From NCBI GenBank assembly GCA_963712535.1, contig CAVQIK010000008.1:34798-98797 (forward strand): DNA of 64,000 nucleotides. Direction: 5' to 3'. Below are positions 16,516 through 28,088 of the stretch, piece by piece; position 1 is the stretch's first letter; the number at the start of each line of letters is the position of its first letter. Source of the DNA: an uncultured delta proteobacterium (GTDB lineage: Bacteria; Desulfobacterota; SM23-61). The position numbers and the translations under genes were made by a program. The notes under the pieces were generated by a model. The model did no database searches. It saw only the letters and a list, made by a program, of their open reading frames with translations, and had not been told where the DNA came from.

Positions 16516-17208
16516 TCAGTATTCGAAATAAAGGGGTAAGGCAACGGGCATCGTGAAAGGCAAACGAACCTCCTGGTACGGGAGAACCGGCATGCAGGTG
16601 GAACTCCGGGGACGGCATTCCCGGCCCCCTCCCCAGTCCGGCGCCGAAACCGAGCGGATATCTTTGCACTCCGACTCCGCATCTTCAGGCCGGAGATACG
16701 CCAGCCCGGATCTCACGATCTGGTAGCGCAAATTCGTGTCCACGTAGGAATTCCCCGTGCAACCTTCCCCCTCAAAATACAGGTACACCGAGGGAAAGAA
16801 CGGGTCCAGATCTCCTGTGTTCGAGGATATGGTGATGAACCGGGAAAGCGAGGGAATGAATACGGAAAGATACCCCTCCAGGTCGTTTGGCAGAATTCCA
16901 AGAAACTGTCCTTTTGCGTCGTACACCCGGGGTCCCTGCACAACTTTCACGCTGCTCGAGGAGCTGGACCCGGCCGGCCCTTGAGGTCCTGCCGGTCCCA
17001 TGGGCCCCTGGGGACCCTGCGGGCCTGTTTTATTCCAGAAGATCGGGTTCTCGGAGGATCGGCAGGCGCCCGGGCTGCTTACGATTCTTAGTTGCCCGTC
17101 ATTCTTCTGGAAGCACCCATGAATCCCATTTCCCTGGCCGTAACTCGGCATTCCCGACGCTATGAGAAATGCAAAAATCGCTCCAAGGAAAAAAATCGCA
17201 ATTTTCAT
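16516..17208 (-). CDS. Exported protein with short collagen-like repeat
   Basis: RBS GAGGAGG, signal peptide, IHGCFQKNDGQLRIV...C, GPQGPQGPMGPAGPQGPAG, and a Cys-containing C-terminal domain. Confidence 0.75.
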   Translation of the reverse strand: MKIAIFFLGAIFAFLIASGMPSYGQGNGIHGCFQKNDGQLRIVSSPGACRSSENPIFWNKTGPQGPQGPMGPAGPQGPAGSSSSSSVKVVQGPRVYDAKGQFLGILPNDLEGYLSVFIPSLSRFITISSNTGDLDPFFPSVYLYFEGEGCTGNSYVDTNLRYQIVRSGLAYLRPEDAESECKDIRSVSAPDWGGGRECRPRSSTCMPVLPYQEVRLPFTMPVALPLYFEY

Positions 17209-17643
17209 ATGACCTCCTCTCGATGATGGATCCATTCCATGTCCATGCTCGACTGCATCGACCTGAAAACTGCGCCTTGGGAACAGCAAGAAAAAGGCCA
17301 AGGAGCAGCATCCGCAGAACTCGGAAATTATTTGGTTTTATCTGAAATCAAGGGTCTAGGGCGGGTTCGAAATTGAGATTTTGTAGTTCATATATGTACA
17401 TCGTCAAATCATCAGGTAAATTTTTCTGATGCCCGTTAAGCCTGCCAATTCGCGGCTGAACGAATCATGACGGTTGGCGCAGGATTCCCTGAAAACCATT
17501 TCCCGGAAATTGGCATCAAAAAATAGGAAACGAGGGAGGGCCTATGGAGGGTGAGTCGTCCGCACGTAGCGGGTAGGCGGCAGGGGCGAAGGCAGTTGCA
17601 TTGAGGGTCAAATCTTACAAATCGAGCTTTTGTGAGGTAAAAA

Positions 17644-17934: not shown

Positions 17935-20391
17935 CTATTTTTTATCCCTCTCCGCGTCAAATTCCTTCATTCGGCTTGCGAGGTCATGCAGCTTTTCATC
18001 GACGAGATAATTCACCGTTCCTGCAGGGTATTTTCCGTCGCTCCCCTTTTCCCCCGCGGCGAGCCCGGTTAGGATTTCGATTCCCTGGTCGATGGTCTGC
18101 ACCGGGTAGATGTGAAATTTCCCCGCCGCTACCGCTTCCACAACATCTTTCCGGAGCATGAGGTCTCCGATGTTCTGGTGGGGGATCATCACCCCCTGGT
18201 TCCCGGTCAACCCCCGGGCGCGGCAGACGTCGAAGAAACCCTCGATCTTCTGGTTGACTCCCCCGATCGGCTGGATTTCGCCGTTCTGGTTGACCGATCC
18301 GGTAACGGCAATATCCTGGCGCAGGGGAACCCCGACCAGGCTGGAGAGGATGGCATACACCTCCGTGCGAAGAAGCGCTGTCCCCGTCCACCCCGCTGTA
18401 GGACTGTTCGAAGGCCAGGCTGGCCGTGAGCGTCATGGGCTTGTCCTGGGCGTATTTCCCCCGCAGGTACCCGCCCAGGATGAGCACCCCCTTATTGTGG
18501 GTCCGCCCCGACAGGTCGGCCTCCCGCTCGATGTTGATGATCCCCGATTTGCCCATGGAGGTCTTGGCCGTGATCCGGGAGGGTTTGCCGAAGGCGTATT
18601 CCCCCATGATCGTAGACCGAAAGGCCGTTGACCTGGCCCACCTTGGCCCCGTCGGAGTCGATCAGGATGATCCCGTCTTCGATCATCTCCTGGATCTTGT
18701 CCTCGATCATCTTGTTGCGGTAGATCTTCTCGGCGATGGCCTGGTCCACGTGCTTTTCCGTAGACCTTGTCGCTTCCCATCCTTCCTGGCCCAGTAACTC
18801 GCCTCCCGCAGGATGTCGCGTGATGCGGTGAAATTCCGTGGAAAGCTTCTTCTGCCGTCCCGCCAGCCGCACCCCGTATTCGATGACCGCGGCCACCCCG
18901 CTGCGGTCGAAGGGCAGGAGCTTCTCATCCTGGCAGATCTTGCGGATGAAAGCGGCGTACTGCACCTGGTTCTTCCTTGCGCTCCATCACCGTGTCGAAG
19001 TCGGCCTTGATCTTGAAGATCTTCTTGAAATCCTCATCCGCGTAATAGAGGGTCTCGTATAGGTAGGCAGTCGCCGATCATGACCACTTTCACCCGGACG
19101 TCGATCGGCTCGGGCTTCAGCGCCGAGCTGGCGAAGAGGTAAAAGGGATCGAAGGACTGCATCTCCATGCGAGCGGTTCCGCAGGGTCCGCTTCAGGGCG
19201 ATCCAGACCCCCGGCTCGATGAAAACATCGAGGGCGTTGAGGACCAGGTACCCCCCGTTCGCCCGGAGGAACGACCCGCTCTTGATCTTGGTGAAATCGG
19301 TCTTCCAGCATCCCGCCCATCCCCATGCTCCGTTCGATCGTTCCGAAGAGGTTGCGGTAGGTGGGGGAAGTCTCGATGATCACCGGCGCCCCTTTGGTTT
19401 CGGAGTTATCCACCAGGACATTGACCTGGAATTCGCTGAAGGTATCCACCGGCGGCGGGCATCATCAGGCCGGGGATGGGAAGCTGGGGAGTCTCGGCCT
19501 TGGGCTGAAATCGGGCCGGGTTTTCCAGGATGTTCTCTTTGACTTCATCCAGGTAGGCGTGGATCTTGGGCTGTTTGTATTTCTCCCGGATGTCGCCGAT
19601 CGCGCCTTCCACGAGGTGGGAGATGGCGGATTTATCCAGGGCGGACAGCTCCTCCTGGATGGTCTTTTCCACTTTGCGCGTTTCCTTCAGCACCTGCTCC
19701 ATCTCGGTGCTTAGAGCTGGCTGTATTTGGTTTTCAGCTCTTCGAAGGTCTCCTTCGGGAACTGTCCCTGGTCCACCAGGTTCTCCAGCTGATCCAGGGG
19801 CATGGCGTTGCCGGCCACCATGGGGACGACGTCCGGACGGGTGAAAGGACCCATCTGGACCTGCACCACGGCAAATCCTTCCTTCTTGGCCCGGGCTTCA
19901 AAGTCCTTGACCATCCCCTTCTCCCGCTCCCGGTGCTTTTCCACCAGTTCCCTTCTCTGTCTTCTGGTATTCTTCGCTCTCGAAGATGAGCGGGATCTTC
20001 TTCTTCAGGGATTCGATCAGATCGTCCATGTCTTTCTTGAAGACCTTCCCCTGGCCCGCGGGCAGGCAGATGCATTTGGGCTGATCCGGGTCTTTGAAGT
20101 TATTCACGTAGCAGAGGTCGTCGGGGATCTTGCCCGCTTTGTCGATCTCCTCCAAAAGGCATTTGATCGTCGTGTTGCGCCCGGTCCCCACCAGCCCCAC
20201 GACAAAGATGTTGTAGCCCAGGCTGTCCATCTCCAGGCCCAGGCGGATGGCTTTCAGCGCCCGCTCCTGGCCGATGATATCCGAGACAGGGCTGAACTTC
20301 GTTCGTCGTCTCGAAGGGCAGCGATTCGGGAGGGCAGCGCCACCGCAATTTTTCAACCGGAACTTCCTGCGTATTTTATAAGATCCGCCAT
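17935..20391 (-). CDS. Lon-family ATP-dependent protease (AAA plus Lon C domain; multiple frameshifts)
   Basis: Fragments LRWRC, DIIGQERALKAIRLGLEM...NIFVVG..GTGRNT, EQSYSGVDGDSAS, IAVTGSVNQNGEIQPIGGVNQKIEGFFDVC. RBS AGGAG before ATG 20391. Confidence 0.85.
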
Positions 20392-20498: not shown

Positions 20499-20530
20499 AA
20501 AAAAAAGAGTGGGGCCGATGAGCCCCACTC
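20499..20530 (-). terminator. Rho-independent terminator of the ArsA-like operon
   Basis: 9-bp stem GAGTGGGGC/GCCCCACTC followed by a T-run on the minus strand, just after the stop at 20567. Confidence 0.8.
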
Positions 20531-20566
20531 CCGAGGAGTTCAGGTCGGCCTATTAATGGTTGTCTT

Positions 20567-21551
20567 TCAGACGAAGAGATGATCCGCCAGCTTCCGCAGC
20601 ATGACCGGCCCTTGAATCTCGGTTTCGAAGAGGGGAACGATGGAACGGACTCCATCGCCGAAGGCCTGCCAGATCTCCTCCATGTGCTCGTCCTGCATCT
20701 TCACCCGGTTGCGCACGAATTCCGGAGAATCGGCCTTGACCGTCTCCTTCTGGATCAGGCCGTTGACGATGACTCCGCCCACCGGAATTCCGAAATCGTG
20801 GAACCACTGGATGAACCGGGTGATGACCGCGATGGGGAGGGCTCTCCGGCAGGGTCACGAAGAAGAAGGAGGTCATCGCGGGATCGGTCAGGAGGACTTT
20901 CGCATTGGCCATCCGGTCCTTGAACTGGAGCAGGTAGTCCATCAAGGGGTCCTTCTCCTCCTTCTTGGTGTAGGAAAGGGCCTTGCGCAGGACCTTGGCC
21001 TCATCCCGGCTCTTGAGCATCTTATCCACCCAGAGGGAGTAAACCTTGGACATACCCAGCAGCCGCCGGGCATTGGCGGTGGGCGCCGTGTCAAAGACGT
21101 AGATTTCGTATTCGTCCTTGAACATCAGGTCGATCATGTTCTCAAACATGGCCGACTCTTCAAAAGCCGGGTTCATCGTGGCCGACTCGACGAATTCCTC
21201 GGCCTTGATGGTAATGTCGGCGAATTTGAGGAACCAGGCGATCTTTTCCCGGATCTGCCTGTTTGGACCGCTCGATGGATTCCTTGGTGTCGATCTCGAA
21301 GGCATAACATTGTTTCTCGTCGCAGATCAGACACCGGTTTGCCGAAAACGTCCTGGTTCAGCAGGTTGCTCAGGCTGTGGACCGGGTTGGTGGAAGCCAG
21401 GAGGGTCTTCTTCCCCTGTTTGGCAAACCACAGGGCCGCGGCCCCGGCCATGATGGTCTTGCCCACTCCGCCCTTTGCCCCCGAAAAAGACGTACTTGAG
21501 CTTGGGGTTGGCTTTCATATAGTCGGTCATGCTGGTGGTGATTCCGCTCAT
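20567..21551 (-). CDS. ArsA/GET3/TRC40-family ATPase, subunit 2 (frameshifted)
   Basis: KYVFFGGKG(G.)GKTI, LLASTNPVHSLSNL, MNPAFEESAMF, FDTAPTANARRLL, FFFVTLPE, GGVIVNGLI. ATG overlaps the stop of subunit 1. Confidence 0.85.
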
Positions 21552-22542
21552 GTTTTCCCTCCGTTGCCGAACATGGCCTTGGCCATCTTTTCGATCATCG
21601 GCAGACCGGTGACATCCCGTTCCATCTCGGGGACCGAAGCCAGGATCTCGTTCTTGAAAGTCTCATCGATGAGCTTCAGGTATTTGTCCTGCATGGTGAT
21701 CCGGTGGCGCAGATACTCGGGGATGTCCTGGTTCTTCAGCTCCGGGGGAAGGACCCGGTTGATGATGTACCCGCTCAGGGGGACGTCGAACTTGGCGAAG
21801 AGCTGAGCGGCCTTCTGGGTGTCTTTGATGATCATCTCCTCGGGCACGATGACAAAGAAGAAGGCCGTCTTCTGCTTGTCCGTGAGGATGCTCGAGGATT
21901 TGTTGATCCGGTCTTTGATCCACAAGCAGCTCGGTGAGGATCTTGTCCTCCTCCGTTTCCTTCTCCCTCTTCACGATGGCCGCTACCTTGTCGTATTCGG
22001 CCATCTCGCCCCGGAGGTGGGTAATTTTATCGATCCAGGCGTCATACACCGAGGCCATGGAGAGGTAGTAGAGGGCATGACCCAGGGGAACGAGGTCGTA
22101 GATGTAGTAGTCATAGCCGCCTTTGACCACGATGTCCACGACTTCGTCGAAGATCGCGCTCTCTTCCATCGCCGGCTCGGCGGCCGCGGCCTGGATGTAG
22201 CCTTCGATCTCCTCGGGAACTTTCGGCAGCCCGTACATATCCAGGATCTTCTTGCGAATCTCGTCCTGGTATTCCTTGATCCGGCGGTCGGCGTCGATCT
22301 CCTGGGCGTAGAGGTTGGGCATGATCTCCACCGCGCCCTTTGCCGAAGATGTCCCGCTTGAAGATGTCGCTCAGCGAGGCCTGGGGGTCCACGGAAAAGA
22401 CCAGGACCTTGTGTCCCTTGCTTGGCCAGGTAATAGGCCGTAGCCGCGGAGAAGGTGGTCTTTCCCAGTCCTCCTTTTCCGCCGAACATGATGTACCGCC
22501 GGTCGGGAAACTTTTCAAAAATGTCTGCGAGTGGAATGGCAC
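21548..22542 (-). CDS. ArsA/GET3/TRC40-family ATPase, subunit 1 (frameshifted)
   Basis: RBS AAGGAGGT plus [73 protein letters not shown]. Confidence 0.85.
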
Positions 22543-22643
22543 ACCTCCTTCTATGGGTGAAGACATACGCTGGCTGCCTAAGAATTTATATTGGGCGATT
22601 CATGAGACCGGGCTCGAATTCCCGCCCGCTTTGGCTGGATCCC

Positions 22644-22938
22644 TTACGCCAGGGCGTCCGTCAGATCCCGCTCCCGGAGCATCCTCCGCTTCCAGGTGGA
22701 AATCTGGGGGACCACATAGGGCAGAATACGCAGGGAATAATAAGGAGGCAGAATGGGGACCCCCAGCAGGTCACCCATGGTGATCAGGATGAAGAGGTGC
22801 TCCATGCTCCCCCGGGTTTTCAGGGCGAACCGGGCGGTGTCGTGGGCCGCCATGCCGTAGATCATCTCCTTGGCGGCTTTTCCAAACCTGCTCGAAGATG
22901 CCTTTCTTGTTCCTCGATTTTTCTTCCTCTTTGGCCAT
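22644..22938 (-). CDS. Small hypothetical protein with one hydrophobic segment (cory-CC-star-like; one frameshift)
   Basis: RBS GGAGAAGG plus ATG 22938. MAKEEEK...GIFEQVWK joins AAKEMIYG...LFILITMGDLLGVPILPPYYSLRILPYVVPQISTWKRRMLRE after removing one base from the A-run. Confidence 0.7.
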
Positions 22939-23339
22939 TGACCCTTCTCCTGTGAGCGTCTTGATTTGCCGAATTTTCCATCGGATGCCATTATATTCCC
23001 ACGGCAGAAGAATGTCAAATAAAAAAATCCGGAATAGTCGGGAACGGGTCCTGAATGCGGGTCCTGAGCCACGGGTCAGCGGGCGGGGGCTTTGGAAGGA
23101 TGATCTACATCATTGTCCGCGTTCTTCCGAACAAAAATAATGTTGACATCCTACCCGTATTGTGCCAGAAATAGCCCCAAATAGGTCTGAGCCGAAAATT
23201 TTTCTGTGAAAGGAGGTGATCGAAGGTTCACGCGTCTCCCTGAAAAGGTTCGTGTCTTCGAACGTGTCCGGCCTCTCCCGATGGCTTGGGGAGAGCAAGA
23301 ATAAGGTCCCTCAAGACTTAACTCGAAGGAGGGAGAAAG

Positions 23340-25116
23340 ATGACGTCGTTATATGCTTTGATCTTGGGCATCGTCTGGATTGTTCTGGTCTACAAATTCT
23401 ACGCCAAATACATAGACCGGAAAATTATCATGGCCGACTCCAAGAAAGCGACTCCCGCCGTCATGTACATGGACGGGGTGGAGTTCATGCCCGCCAACAA
23501 AAACGTCCTCTTTGGTTTCCAATACAAATCCATCTGCGGCATAGGACCTGTCGCCGGGGCGATCTTCGCCTCGAACTGGGGCTGGCTGCCGGCCATGCTC
23601 TACCTCCTGCTGGGCGTGGCTTTGCTCGGGTGGGTCCATGACTACACCTCCACCATGGTCGGCGTCCGCAGGGAGGGAATGAGCCTGGGAGGCATGAGTT
23701 ACACCCTGATCTCTCCCCGGGCCAGAACCCTGATCAGCATCTTCATCTATTTCAACCTCATGCTCAGCTTCGGCGCCTTTGCGGTGATGATCGCCTCCAA
23801 CTTCACCGTCCCCACCGGTCCCCTGGGAATCATCATCTGGGTCCTGATGGGCCTCCTGGCCGGCCAGATGATTTACAAATGGAAGCAATCCATTGTGACC
23901 ACCACTCTGGTGACCGTGGTCATCACCTTCTTCGGGATCTTCTACCTGACCAGCCTGCCCTCGGTGACGGCATTTTTCAAAGCGATCAGCGGCGGCGACA
24001 AGCCCCCCATCATCTTCGGGGTCACCAACCAGGCCCAGTTCATCTGGACGATCGCGGTTCTGATCTTCTGTTATTTCGGGGCCATCCTGCCCATCTGGCG
24101 CTGGGCCCAGCCCATCAACTACCTGGGGTTCTGGGTGGTTTTCATCGGCATGGTTTGCATTTCGCTGGGAATCATCTTCTGGAATCCCTCCTTCGCCAAC
24201 TTCCCCGCTTACAAAGGATGGTGGTGGGGGACCAATCCTCTCTGGCCGATCCTTTTCGTGACCCTCATGTGCGGGGCGGTCTCGGGCTGGCATTCCCTGG
24301 TGGGCAGCTCGGGAACCGCCCGAATGCTGGAGAAGGAAACCGACACCCTGCCGGTGGCCGGCGGCGCCATGCTCCTGGAGATGATCATGGGCATGCTGGC
24401 CCTGATCATCGCCGTATCGGCCTTCGGGAGTTTTGATGGGTTTGCCGCCGCTATGAAGGGAGGAGGACCGCCCGCGGTCTTCACTGCCGGGGGCGCAAAA
24501 TTCTTCGCGGCCATCGGAATTCCGATCGCGCAGTGCCCTTGTCTTCGGCAACATCATGTTTGCCGTCATCGCCATGACCCTCATCCACCTGGGGGTGAGG
24601 TTCATGCGCCTCTACGGGGCTGATGTGCTCGGGGAACACTGGCCGATCTTCAAGAACGTCCAGTTTTCCACCATCTTCACCCTGATCATCTTCGGCGTCT
24701 TCTGCTTCACCGGGGTTCTGTCCACCCTCTGGTTCCTGGGAGGGGCGTTCAACCAGATGCTGGCCGCCATGGCCTTGCTCATCGCCACCTGCTGGCTGGC
24801 CTACGAGAAGAAGGCGTACGGGTTTACCCTCTACCCGTCCATCTTCCTCTTCGTGACCACCATCTCGGCGGCCATCTGGATCTCCTACAAGACGATCAGA
24901 CATTTCTTCATCACGCCGAATATCACCACGGACCGGGCCGTCGGCGACTGGCTCACGGGCCTGATCGCCCTCTTCCTGGTTTACTGTGCGGCGGTCTTGA
25001 TCAAAGACGGCTTTGCGGCCATAAGGAAATTCACCAGCGAAAAGCGAGCACCGGGCAAACCGGCTGCGGTGCCCGGCATCGGCGGAAGTGCAAGTAGGGA
25101 ATCAGGAAAGCAGTAA
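23340..25116 (+). CDS. cstA: Carbon starvation CstA-family transporter (one frameshift ~24540)
   Basis: TPAVMYMDGVEFMPA, LFGFQYKSICGIGPVAGAI, WGWLPA, GWVHDY, PILFVTLMCGAVSGWHSLVGSSGTARML, GGAMLLE. A second ORF supplies the remaining TM helices. Confidence 0.88.
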
Positions 25117-25225
25117 TTGAGTTCGGAGATCGGAGTTCGGAGAAAAGGAGGCAGTTCCTCCGAACTCCGAACTCCGTTCCTTCTTTTTGATCATTCGTCT
25201 TCCAAAAGCCTCATCGGGTAAAAGA

Positions 25226-25600
25226 ATGAAACCGATTATCCTCGAAGTCATTTCCCTGATCCCCGGCCTTTTCGCCAGCTGAACTCACTGTGAGTATGTC
25301 ACAGACCAGGTGGGTCTGAAGGAACAAGCGGGATAACCAGGACCTCAACGATTATCCCGAAGGACCTGAAGGAGGACTACCTGTTTCTCTCCGGATGGAT
25401 CAGGGAGTTATCCCAAAAATACCGGGAGAAATATCTTGATCCGGATTACCGACGCCCAATCCCTCCAGGGGTTTTATAAATCCATCCGCTACCGGGCCTT
25501 CCGCTACCCGGCCTTCATCATCAATAAGAAGAAGAAATACACGGGAAAGGACAAAGTCCGGCTCGACAGCCTCCTCCGGGAAGAACTGGGCAATGCCTGA
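25226..25600 (+). CDS. Thioredoxin-like selenoprotein with UxxC motif (not in ORF track; apparent +1 errors downstream)
   Basis: MKPIILEVISLIPGLFAS-TGA(25280-82)-THCEY. After correcting three single-base insertions (~25328, ~25361, ~25430) it reads DLKEDYLFLSGWIRELSQKY...IRITDAQSLQGFYKSIRYRAFRYPAFIIN...LREELGNA*. Confidence 0.7.
25302..25318 (+). promoter_or_regulatory. Putative bacterial SECIS hairpin
   Basis: CAGACC-AGGTG-GGTCTG with the loop starting 25 nt after the UGA. Confidence 0.6.
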
Positions 25601-26115
25601 CCTCCCGCCGTCCGCACCGCCCTCTGAGCGAAAAAAGCAGATCGTCGCCGCCAAGAACCTTCTATTCGGGACCGGCTATTTCCTGATCCTGTCCCTCCCC
25701 GAAGGCTGGGGGATTATCCGGAGTTATTTGGAGCCGGACGTTCATTCCACCGTGACGCGGGGGCGGATGACCTGGGTGGAGGCCGGCCAGGCGGATCAGA
25801 TCGTATTCAACCGCCACCGGAGGATTGCCCTCGATTTCATGATCCAGATCAAACGGGGAAAACACGATACCCTGGATCTGAAAGGGGTGCAGGTCTCTTC
25901 CCAGGGCTCGGGGATCGTGGGCGGCCATCCCGCTTCTTACTGTTTCGGAGAGGTGAAACAAGGTTTCATCAAGAAAGAAATCCTACAAGACCCTTCGCCT
26001 CTGCTTCTACTGCCCGGAGCTGCAGCACACCCTCTTTTTGCACTTCACCGGAAAATGCGAGGAGTCGGATCTGCAGGAAATTTTCGACTCCCTTGCCAGC
26101 CTGGAATGCCACTGA
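25593..26115 (+). CDS. Hypothetical protein ending in LECH (one frameshift ~25976)
   Basis: Start overlaps the upstream stop. After the shift it reads KKKSYKTLRLCFYCPELQHTLFLHFTGKC...LASLECH*. Confidence 0.6.
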
Positions 26116-27283: not shown

Positions 27284-28088
27284 TGAAGTTCCTGCAGGAC
27301 ATCACCCTCGGGCAGTATCATGCCCGGGGATTCCTTTCTTCATCGCCTGGACCCCCGGACCAAGTTCCTCTCCCTGATCGTTGCTCATGATCGTCACTTT
27401 TCTGATCCAGTCCTACCCGGCTCTGGTCTTGCTCTGGGCCTTCTTCTTCCTGGCGCTGACGCTTTCCGGCCTCTCCTGGGGTTACGTTTTCCGCGGCGTC
27501 CGGTCCTTCCTCTGGCTCTTCCTGTTCACCGCCGCGGTCCATCTCTTCTTTACCCCCGGCCCTTCCCTGCCCTTTTTTCCCCTGGGATTCATCGATGTCA
27601 CCTGGCCGGGCCTGGCCAAAGGGCGTCTTTGTGGCCGCCCAGCTCTCCTGGCGATTCTCTTCTCCTCCCTCATGACCCTGACCACGTCCCCCCTGCAGCT
27701 GGCCCACGGCCTGGAGAAACTCCTCTCCCCCTTGAAACGTTTTCGTGTGCCCGTAGGGGATTTTTCCCTGATGACCATGCTGGCCATCAAGTTCATTCCG
27801 ATTCTCCTGGGAGAAACCCAGCGGATCATCAAGGCCCAGAGCGCCCGGGGAGTGGATTTTGAATCCGGCAACTTCTTTCGCCGGGCCAGAAACCTCCTTC
27901 CGATCCTGACTCCTCTTTTTCACAGTGTCTTCAAGCGGGCCGACGACCTGGCCGTCGCCCTGCTTGCCCGCGGATACGTCAGCGGCGCCAAACGGACCTA
28001 CCTCCATGAACTTAAGATGAAGAAGAAAGATTATGGGGTGCTGGCGGCAGTAATCGGGATTCTGATTTTGGCGTTGAAAATGGGCTAG
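27283..28088 (+). CDS. ecfT: ECF transporter transmembrane component T (frameshifted)
   Basis: QDITLGQY.PGDSFLHRLDPRTK, LTTSPLQLAHGLE, LAIKFIPIL, AQSARG and ALLARGY (two ARG motifs). Confidence 0.88.

Follow-up and report, generated by a model that had tools for sequence, protein, structure and literature searches.

The question raised by this locus is whether six neighbouring genes form one transport system, what kind of system this would be, and whether they are functional genes at all, none of the six being an intact open reading frame (ORF) in the available sequence (0/6). The genes lie in a stretch of 64,000 nucleotides (nt) of contig CAVQIK010000008.1 (assembly GCA_963712535.1, uncultured delta proteobacterium), hereafter called the window. 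One unit comprises cstX, for a small protein, and arsA1 and arsA2, for two Get3/ArsA-like ATPases; the other comprises cstA, for a permease, a gene for a thioredoxin (Trx)-like protein with selenocysteine (Sec), and a gene for a protein ending in LECH. Six-frame reading and Pfam agree with the positions given to all six in the original prediction, made from the sequence alone (Table 1). As a whole, the locus is probably the Syntrophales-type version of the CstA-CstX-(ArsA-like)2 module, here with a Trx-like selenoprotein, and its frameshifts are most likely errors.

The original prediction considered this a candidate undescribed system, which does not hold for its core. The available text of Castillo & Saier (2010, Int J Microbiol 2010:187373, PMC2963123) describes 26 bacterial and archaeal cases in which cstA is clustered with genes for single-domain ArsA homologues of ~330 amino acids (aa), 24 of them also with a ~90-aa protein with a single transmembrane segment, named CstX, and some with CstY; in two of the organisms, a pair of ArsA genes lies side by side. 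It also reports that the cst operons are without ars genes and that the three families co-evolve, and proposes that the ATPase energises CstA via CstX, which is also the main idea of the original prediction. Thus the cstA-cstX-arsA operons, the adjacent ArsA pairs and the energising idea have all been in print since 2010, and the small protein corresponds to DUF7990. The window shares with that module the CstA permease, the ~90-aa CstX, the single-domain ~330-aa ArsA homologues and the lack of ars genes. It differs in having two divergent units in place of one operon, and in the addition of a Trx-fold Sec/Cys protein and the LECH protein, neither of which is mentioned in the available portions of PMC2963123. 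A CstY-like gene is not present in the window.

The extent of the module was established by scanning 185,579 species genomes (one per species) with the CstX alignment, which gave at least 575 confirmed cstX loci; the mapping was done on the best 80, and the denominators below are those loci among the 80 with enough flanking sequence. These 80 belong to metagenome-assembled genomes (MAGs) of Chloroflexota, Desulfobacterota, Actinomycetota, Methylomirabilota, Planctomycetota, Poribacteria and WOR-3. Directly 3' of cstX, arsA1 and arsA2 follow in 62 of 63 loci, while cstA is present in 36 of 37, and in 33 of 36 it is colinear and upstream. A second, diverged CstX paralogue (CstX') accompanies 25 of 36 loci, the Trx-like gene 16 of 36 and the LECH gene 4 of 36. 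The plus- and minus-strand genes of the window therefore do keep company in other genomes, on which the original prediction had staked its case, and its expectation for the six families stands for cstA, cstX and the two ATPases across phyla and for the recurrent Trx-like gene, and fails for LECH, which is lineage-restricted. The two units are found in three arrangements: the window and its family have them divergent, most phyla (with G017 among the examples) colinear, and the Desulfobacterales MAGs L030 and L062 convergent. That they stay together through all three speaks for function rather than inherited synteny. The median identities to the Syntrophales reference are 79% for CstX, 77% for ArsA1, 69% for ArsA2 and 46% for CstA, so that the ATPase-CstX part appears much more tightly constrained than the permease.

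The Chloroflexota loci (e.g., L095:10453-11085 on the plus strand and L063:10987-11640 on the minus strand) have further conserved neighbours absent from the window. These include a ~205-aa membrane protein with tetratricopeptide repeats directly 3' of arsA2 (33 loci), a ~215-aa protein with an N-terminal transmembrane segment (23 loci), whose sole family hint is a faint CCDC47 match in Pfam (E = 0.35), and a ~170-aa family in 9 loci.

The permease is a CstA-family member, matching PF02554 in each of the two pieces into which its gene is divided (E = 2e-84 for 23340-24623 and 5e-13 for 24556-25116), and an intact orthologue scores 334 bits with the same family. The intact orthologues in relatives are 580-589 aa long.

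Both ATPases pass the cut-off of the Get3/TRC40/ArsA model TIGR00345 (135 bits), with 227 bits for ArsA1 and 209 bits for ArsA2 as represented by the intact 326-aa orthologue of locus L013. They are single-domain proteins of 326-328 aa, in place of the two-domain architecture of ~580 aa known for ArsA, and their nearest solved structures are the archaeal Get3 homologues 3zq6 and 3ug6 (E = 1e-54 to 1e-50), with E. coli ArsA 1f48 much more distant (7e-27). The motif consensus, taken from 69 ArsA1 and 64 ArsA2 sequences, has an intact P-loop in both (GGKGG[VL]GKT). In ArsA1 the switch-I Asp is retained (VDPQAS) and switch II is degenerate, with YDLVPLGH for the DTAPTGH of the family; in ArsA2, switch II retains DTAPT (DTAPTAN) and switch I is STNPVHS, with Asn in place of the catalytic Asp, aligned opposite the Asp of STDPAHS in 3zq6. 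The full set of switch-I Asp and DTAPTGH is thus found in neither ATPase, each having half of it, and this asymmetry is at least 90% conserved. Judging by these motifs, ArsA1 and ArsA2 are complementarily degenerate. In Get3, the switch-I change from Asp to Asn blocks hydrolysis and leaves ATP binding in place; together with the complementary defects, this suggests that ArsA1 and ArsA2 would form an obligate heterodimer with one active site. Neither ATPase has a conserved Cys, the highest Cys column reaching no more than 31% in the same alignments, so both the metalloid site of ArsA, which in E. coli is formed by a Cys triad, and the zinc CxxC of Get3 are absent.

Like Get3/TRC40 and its archaeal counterparts, the latter ~40% identical to them, the two ATPases have the same fold family and P-loop, and probably also share the dimeric state. 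Get3, however, is a homodimer, whereas here there are two different subunits with complementary defects, without the zinc CxxC and encoded next to a secondary transporter. Another pair of adjacent, different bacterial genes for Get3-like ATPases unrelated to arsenic is that of BagA and BagB of Mycobacterium tuberculosis (NF053622, NF053621), which form a heterodimer; the matches of ArsA1 and ArsA2 to them are weak, however (34-49 bits, with cut-offs of 400-521), and their context lacks CstA and CstX.

CstX is 74-91% identical across phyla. It has one borderline-hydrophobic, Pro-rich segment (Kyte-Doolittle maximum 1.59) which contains an Asp and several Pro and lies ~25 residues from the C-terminus; these last residues are polar and include the invariant tail WKRRMLRERD. 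Both CstX and CstX' give weak matches, below the cut-off, to the model NF041419 (E = 1e-8 to 9e-8), named by NCBI cory-CC-star for the CstX-like proteins of Corynebacterium, of which CstX is probably a distant relative. Similarly to cory-CC-star, which presumably ends in Cys-Cys, and to YbdD/YjiX (DUF466), with Cys-Cys or Cys-Sec at the C-terminus (Haft preprint), CstX is a small protein encoded beside a CstA-family transporter; in the window, however, it is without cysteine and the redox residues are in a separate Trx-fold protein.

This separate protein is, on the evidence of its codons, a selenoprotein in the window. Codon 19 of its gene is TGA, preceded by a conserved N-terminal peptide of 18-19 codons, and an in-frame TGA stands in the same column in 13 loci (the window and 12 relatives), while L025 and L027 have TGC (Cys) at this position and ~20 Chloroflexota loci and many database proteins have the CxxC form. 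The C-x-x-C is nearly invariant in the family across phyla, and Sec also occurs in the Actinomycetota MAG L080 (QUTHC). The database homologues are of three groups: full-length CxxC proteins, proteins with W read at the TGA, and proteins of 93-99 aa truncated at the next Met. In the two Desulfobacterales loci L030:11000-11362 and L062:11318-11686 (minus strand), the motif is C-N-U-x-x-[YN], without a Cys three residues after Sec, and the partner Cys seems to have moved to position -2. The source genome contains a tRNA-Sec (C14:180340-180438) and SelB, the latter in two adjacent pieces totalling 352 bits (C20:59213-61106), and SelA was not found in this 75.6%-complete assembly. A hairpin of 6 bp with the loop AGGUG begins 18 nt past the UGA and overlaps the codons of a conserved DQVGL, which makes it a candidate Sec insertion sequence (SECIS); 83% of its cells pair in 10 Sec-type loci, with no covariation by RNAalifold and pair counting. 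Rfam gave no SECIS match between 20.3 and 26.4 kb, where all hairpin matches were chance ones.

A profile search of 1.84 billion representatives found 384 clusters (50% identity) at E <= 1e-3 and 222 at E <= 1e-10, which identifies the Trx-like protein as a distinct family of modest size and not a general thioredoxin. An AlphaFold2 model of this family alone (predicted local distance difference test, pLDDT, 77) has a strand at 4-10, the CxxC at 19-22, a helix at 20-28 and the residues YP at 93-94 before a strand at 95-98, with low pLDDT in the active-site stretch and ~40 extra residues (a helical pair) after the active-site helix. The top 50 fold matches in the PDB (template modelling, TM, score ~0.5-0.6) are nearly all of the Trx fold, including thioredoxins, protein disulphide isomerase-family proteins, ERp44 domains and designed proteins, with one unrelated (5xoc). 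By this model, the protein has a thioredoxin fold with the topology beta-alpha-beta-alpha-beta-beta-alpha. It falls below the cut-offs of the curated Trx families Thioredoxin_3 (19.9 bits, cut-off 24.8), SaoT (19.5, cut-off 65) and MJ0307 (20.8, cut-off 92.75). With SaoT (NF040730), MJ0307 (TIGR00411) and MTH895/ArsE (TIGR00412) it has in common the short Trx fold, the CxxC/Sec site and the location beside transporters; it differs from them in its sub-threshold scores (15-21 bits, with cut-offs of 62-93), in the ~40 inserted helical residues and in being a family of its own.

In MAGs of Chloroflexota and Actinomycetota, the Trx-like gene is placed between cstA and cstX, and in three Chloroflexota-type modules the Trx-like domain is fused in frame to a CstX paralogue (L067:5406-6113, L078:7274-7972 and P0217). 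These natural Trx-CstX' fusions argue for physical contact and are the best evidence for the domain being physically part of the module. The cytoplasmic Trx-fold CxxC/UxxC protein is therefore a recurrent extra member of the module, in agreement with the original prediction, which had counted it as part of the system.

The LECH protein has no Pfam or NCBIfam family. Its 215 detectable members are nearly all Syntrophales-like and at least 60% identical to one another. In the lineage of the window, as in L030 and L062, the gene lies 3' of the Trx-like gene; the close relatives L025 and L027 lack it, and a copy 26% identical is found 3' of arsA2 in the Anaerolineae MAG L083. Residues H104, C132 and the C-terminal C164-H165 are invariant, L083 included. 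An AlphaFold2 model (pLDDT 81) has a beta-rich domain in which H104 and C132 face each other on the antiparallel strands 104-115 and 121-132, a predicted layout that fits a His/Cys metal or redox site. The Foldseek matches are weak (best E = 6e-4, TM score 0.45-0.52) and of the PsbP/Mog1/DUF1795 type (3lyd, PsbP, Mog1, Tsi3 and EagT6). A hydrophobic stretch behind basic residues at the N-terminus suggests a membrane anchor. An eventual relationship with the CCDC47-like neighbour of the Chloroflexota loci was rejected (hhalign probability 0.4%), the two being unrelated by sequence. LECH is a lineage-restricted and occasional accessory and not part of the core.

Here it is tentatively proposed that ArsA1 pairs with ArsA2 in an asymmetric heterodimer having a single hydrolytic site, and that this heterodimer would dock on the basic C-terminal tail of CstX, whose hydrophobic Pro-rich segment would lie in or on the membrane beside CstA. 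Binding and hydrolysis of ATP would then gate or drive CstA-mediated uptake, and the target of the thiol/selenol protein would be the transported compound or a cysteine of the complex. As a whole this mechanism is a possibility, at somewhat less than even chances, and it is the one preferred. The original prediction had suggested either an ATP-energised or ATP-gated CstA uptake complex under thiol/selenol redox control or a Get3-like chaperone, and both are hypotheses. Several points weigh against it. We infer the heterodimer, its docking on CstX and its coupling to transport from sequence, and experimental work on the module was not found in the literature searched on cory-CC-star, CstX and CstA with Get3. 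In the Methylomirabilota MAG L099, cstX-arsA1-arsA2 is accompanied by a CstX paralogue in inverted orientation, and cstA is absent from the surrounding 8 kb, the sole such case among the 37 full-flank loci. About half of the modules lack the Trx-like gene and most lack LECH, so that the core does not depend on either, and in the window cstA and the Trx-like gene have a terminator-like hairpin between them.

The main rival to gating or driving, less likely and still to be taken seriously, is that ArsA1 and ArsA2 are a dedicated Get3-type machine for the targeting, insertion or assembly of CstA or of another membrane protein, in which CstX would be a tail-anchored-like client or, with CstX', a membrane receptor as Get1/Get2 are for Get3. 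The archaeal Get3 structures, far ahead of ArsA, and the passing of TIGR00345 by both ATPases agree with this, as does the single hydrophobic segment of CstX ~25 residues from the C-terminus. The invariant KRRMLRER of the CstX tail presumably recalls the RERR motif with which Get2 binds Get3, and the Chloroflexota modules with two CstX paralogues, two ATPases and the faint-CCDC47 neighbour would also be in keeping with such a route. However, the segment of CstX, with its Asp and several Pro, is borderline and precedes ~25 polar residues, the ATPases lack the zinc motif of Get3, and a machine of two ATPases for one permease would be unusual; the CCDC47 match is at E = 0.35 and its gene is absent from the window.

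An improbable alternative is that the system consists of the four-gene core only, the Trx-like selenoprotein and LECH being neighbours by synteny inherited in this lineage, between cstA and asd, with an unrelated redox or metal function. The hairpin between cstA and the Trx-like gene would agree with it, as would L025 and L027, where the Trx-like gene is divergent from cstA, immediately 5' of asd and without LECH, and also G017 and many Desulfobacterota loci, which carry the core without either gene. However, in distant phyla the Trx-like gene is located between cstA and cstX, and its fusions to a CstX paralogue nearly refute the alternative for this protein; cstA, the Trx-like gene and LECH are contiguous in L030 and L062 despite their different orientation to the ATPase operon, and a LECH-like gene lies 3' of arsA2 in L083.

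The features of the locus are given in Table 1. On the minus strand the order of transcription is cstX, arsA1, arsA2, as read in six frames and with Pfam; the stop of arsA1 and the start of arsA2 share an ATGA at 21548-21551, the start codon of arsA1 is uncertain (within 22537-22544), and the intrinsic terminator lies 35 nt 3' of the arsA2 stop. The start of cstX (22938) and that of cstA (23340) are separated by a divergent spacer of 401 bp, and the Trx-like and LECH genes overlap by 8 nt (25593-25600). The ATGA overlap, the minus-strand terminator, the spacer of ~400 bp, the UxxC and the LECH ending had all been reported in the original prediction and each was found in the sequence. The tight coupling of both operons that it had described does not hold between cstA and the Trx-like gene, which are 110 nt apart with the terminator-like hairpin between them. 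The locus is flanked on one side by a LonC-type protease, identified by the Pfam domains LonC_helical, LonB_AAA-LID and Lon_C of its orthologue, and on the other by asd-cbiQ-cobO. Between the LECH gene and asd, L013:9577-11092 and L021:8761-10279 have an AbiEi/AbiEii-like gene pair that the window is without. Elsewhere in the window, an ORF at 16516-17301 on the minus strand has a signal-like N-terminus followed by a collagen-like run of 8 G-x-x triplets (GPQGPQGPMGPAGPQGPAG).

Table 1. Coordinates of the genes and sequence signals of the locus, in positions of the window.
Feature	Position	Strand	Basis
Intrinsic terminator of the cstX-arsA1-arsA2 operon	20505..20532	-	12-bp stem, 7 GC pairs, then TTTTTT
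arsA2, single-domain Get3/ArsA-like ATPase, ~326 aa	20567..21551	-	Pfam ArsA_ATPase on fragments
arsA1, single-domain Get3/ArsA-like ATPase, ~328 aa	21548..22544	-	Pfam ArsA_ATPase on fragments
cstX, small protein of ~97 aa, Pfam DUF7990	22644..22938	-	PF25952 on orthologues
Predicted sigma-70-type consensus promoter of the cstX operon	22990..23018	-	TTGACA-17-TATAAT, 12/12 matches
cstA, short-type CstA-family permease, ~583 aa	23340..25116	+	PF02554 on two pieces
Strong hairpin followed by U-run, terminator-like or attenuator-like	25131..25190	+	-37 kcal/mol, z = -3.4 vs shuffles
Gene of the predicted Trx-like selenoprotein, ~123 aa, U-T-H-C, UGA at 25281-25283	25227..25600	+	In-frame TGA and fold model
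Candidate SECIS hairpin CAGACC-AGGUG-GGUCUG	25302..25318	+	Folds in window
LECH gene, ~173 aa	25593..26115	+	215 homologues, conserved His/Cys

Searches by tblastn with intact orthologues showed that all frame changes in the window are +1, on both strands, and the gene-by-gene DNA alignment with 3-8 relatives identified ~32 single-base insertions found in the window only, between 18,368 and 27,624. Thirteen are inside the six genes: four in arsA2 (20839, 21257, 21331, 21470), three in arsA1 (21924, 22335, 22418), one in cstX (near 22893, as deduced from the reading frames), one in cstA (24526, which divides the gene into two ORFs), three in the Trx-like gene (25325, 25356, 25432) and one in the LECH gene (25985); Lon has another 13, asd 3 and cbiQ 3. 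Against these insertions stand only two deletions, one of 2 nt at 18969 and one of 1 nt at 27643. All four bases occur among the insertions, ~6 of 30 lengthen a homopolymer and few have a CGG context. The patch stops sharply at 27.6 kb, the following 3.4 kb of coding sequence, from cobO to an aminotransferase, have no shifts, and the genes from 28.6 kb are clean. Between the shifts, protein identity to a relative of another genus is 97-100% for the ArsA1 fragments (compared with L021) and 98% for CstX, and the DNA differences from the nearest relative (L029) are mostly silent, with 85-89% identity in DNA and ~95% in protein for its ArsA1. The source assembly has 5.95 Mb in 22 contigs. Its SelB, at C20:59213-61106 and outside the window, is also split, with adjacent frames covering the model positions 1-133 and 130-580.

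The frameshifts are most likely assembly errors and not gene decay, because the insertions are specific to the window, deletions are few, there is no shared context, housekeeping genes are struck and the proteins are nearly identical between shifts. The patch resembles a part of a long-read assembly that had low coverage or no polishing, with residual insertion errors. The argument for errors is indirect, two metagenome scans having yielded no contig of the same species and none above ~90% DNA identity. Quadruplet or programmed +1 decoding was considered because all shifts are +1, and rejected for the lack of a common context, the equal effect on unrelated housekeeping genes and the abrupt stop at 27.6 kb. 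It is very unlikely that the locus is a decaying pseudogene cluster with real frameshift mutations, as the shifts in every gene from Lon to cbiQ in the sole available sequence could suggest; bacterial decay favours deletions, and here insertions prevail, with high protein identity and mostly silent differences between them, while the essential genes asd and lon are equally struck up to the abrupt end of the patch, SelB is split as well and completeness is low for an assembly of this size in 22 contigs. With ~1 false insertion per 300 bases, the assembly is unusable as it stands for this locus.

That the ATPases are classical ArsA, giving resistance to arsenite or antimonite with an unrecognised efflux partner, has the Pfam name ArsA_ATPase in its favour and is hardly credible against scores of 89 and 94 bits with the arsenical pump model TIGR04291 (cut-off 650), the single domain of ~330 aa, the lack of conserved Cys in 64-69 sequences and the absence of arsB/acr3, arsC, arsD and arsR at 17.9-32 kb of the window, the locus being flanked by Lon and asd; both the family assignment and this absence are as the original prediction had them, and the cst operons in the available text of PMC2963123 are likewise without ars genes.

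Thiol/selenol chemistry may be, by analogy, a general feature of the CstA transporter family, because the small partners of other CstA paralogues also carry Cys-Cys or Cys-Sec, as in DUF466 YbdD/YjiX and a Campylobacter selenoprotein (Haft preprint). A wider and rather doubtful reading joins these observations, in which the whole family would need a thiol/selenol partner: in enterics and Campylobacter, DUF466 with CC or CU at its end; in Corynebacterium, cory-CC-star; and in the module described here the CxxC/UxxC Trx-fold family, which some genomes have fused to CstX'. The module would then be an ATP-gated importer with a Get3-derived asymmetric heterodimer docked via CstX. Its cargo would pass to the selenol, be reduced by it or be released from it, and could be a thiol-reactive, metal(loid)- or selenium-containing compound in place of plain peptides or pyruvate; LECH, with its invariant His/Cys and Cys-His residues, would bind metal or cargo as an accessory.

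The core module has a very wide distribution, with at least 575 cstX loci and CstX ~80% identical across phyla, and has been described from genomes since 2010. To it are added here the asymmetric ATPase motifs, the Sec/Cys Trx-fold partner with its CstX' fusions and the LECH Cys/His accessory; no publication mentioning the partner, the fusions or LECH was found in the literature searched, and these three are additions to the 2010 CstA-CstX-ArsA module. The module brings together a secondary transporter and a Get3-type ATPase, a kind otherwise known from arsenite pumping and from the targeting of membrane proteins, and working it out would lead either to a new way of energising or gating a permease or to a bacterial Get-like biogenesis route.

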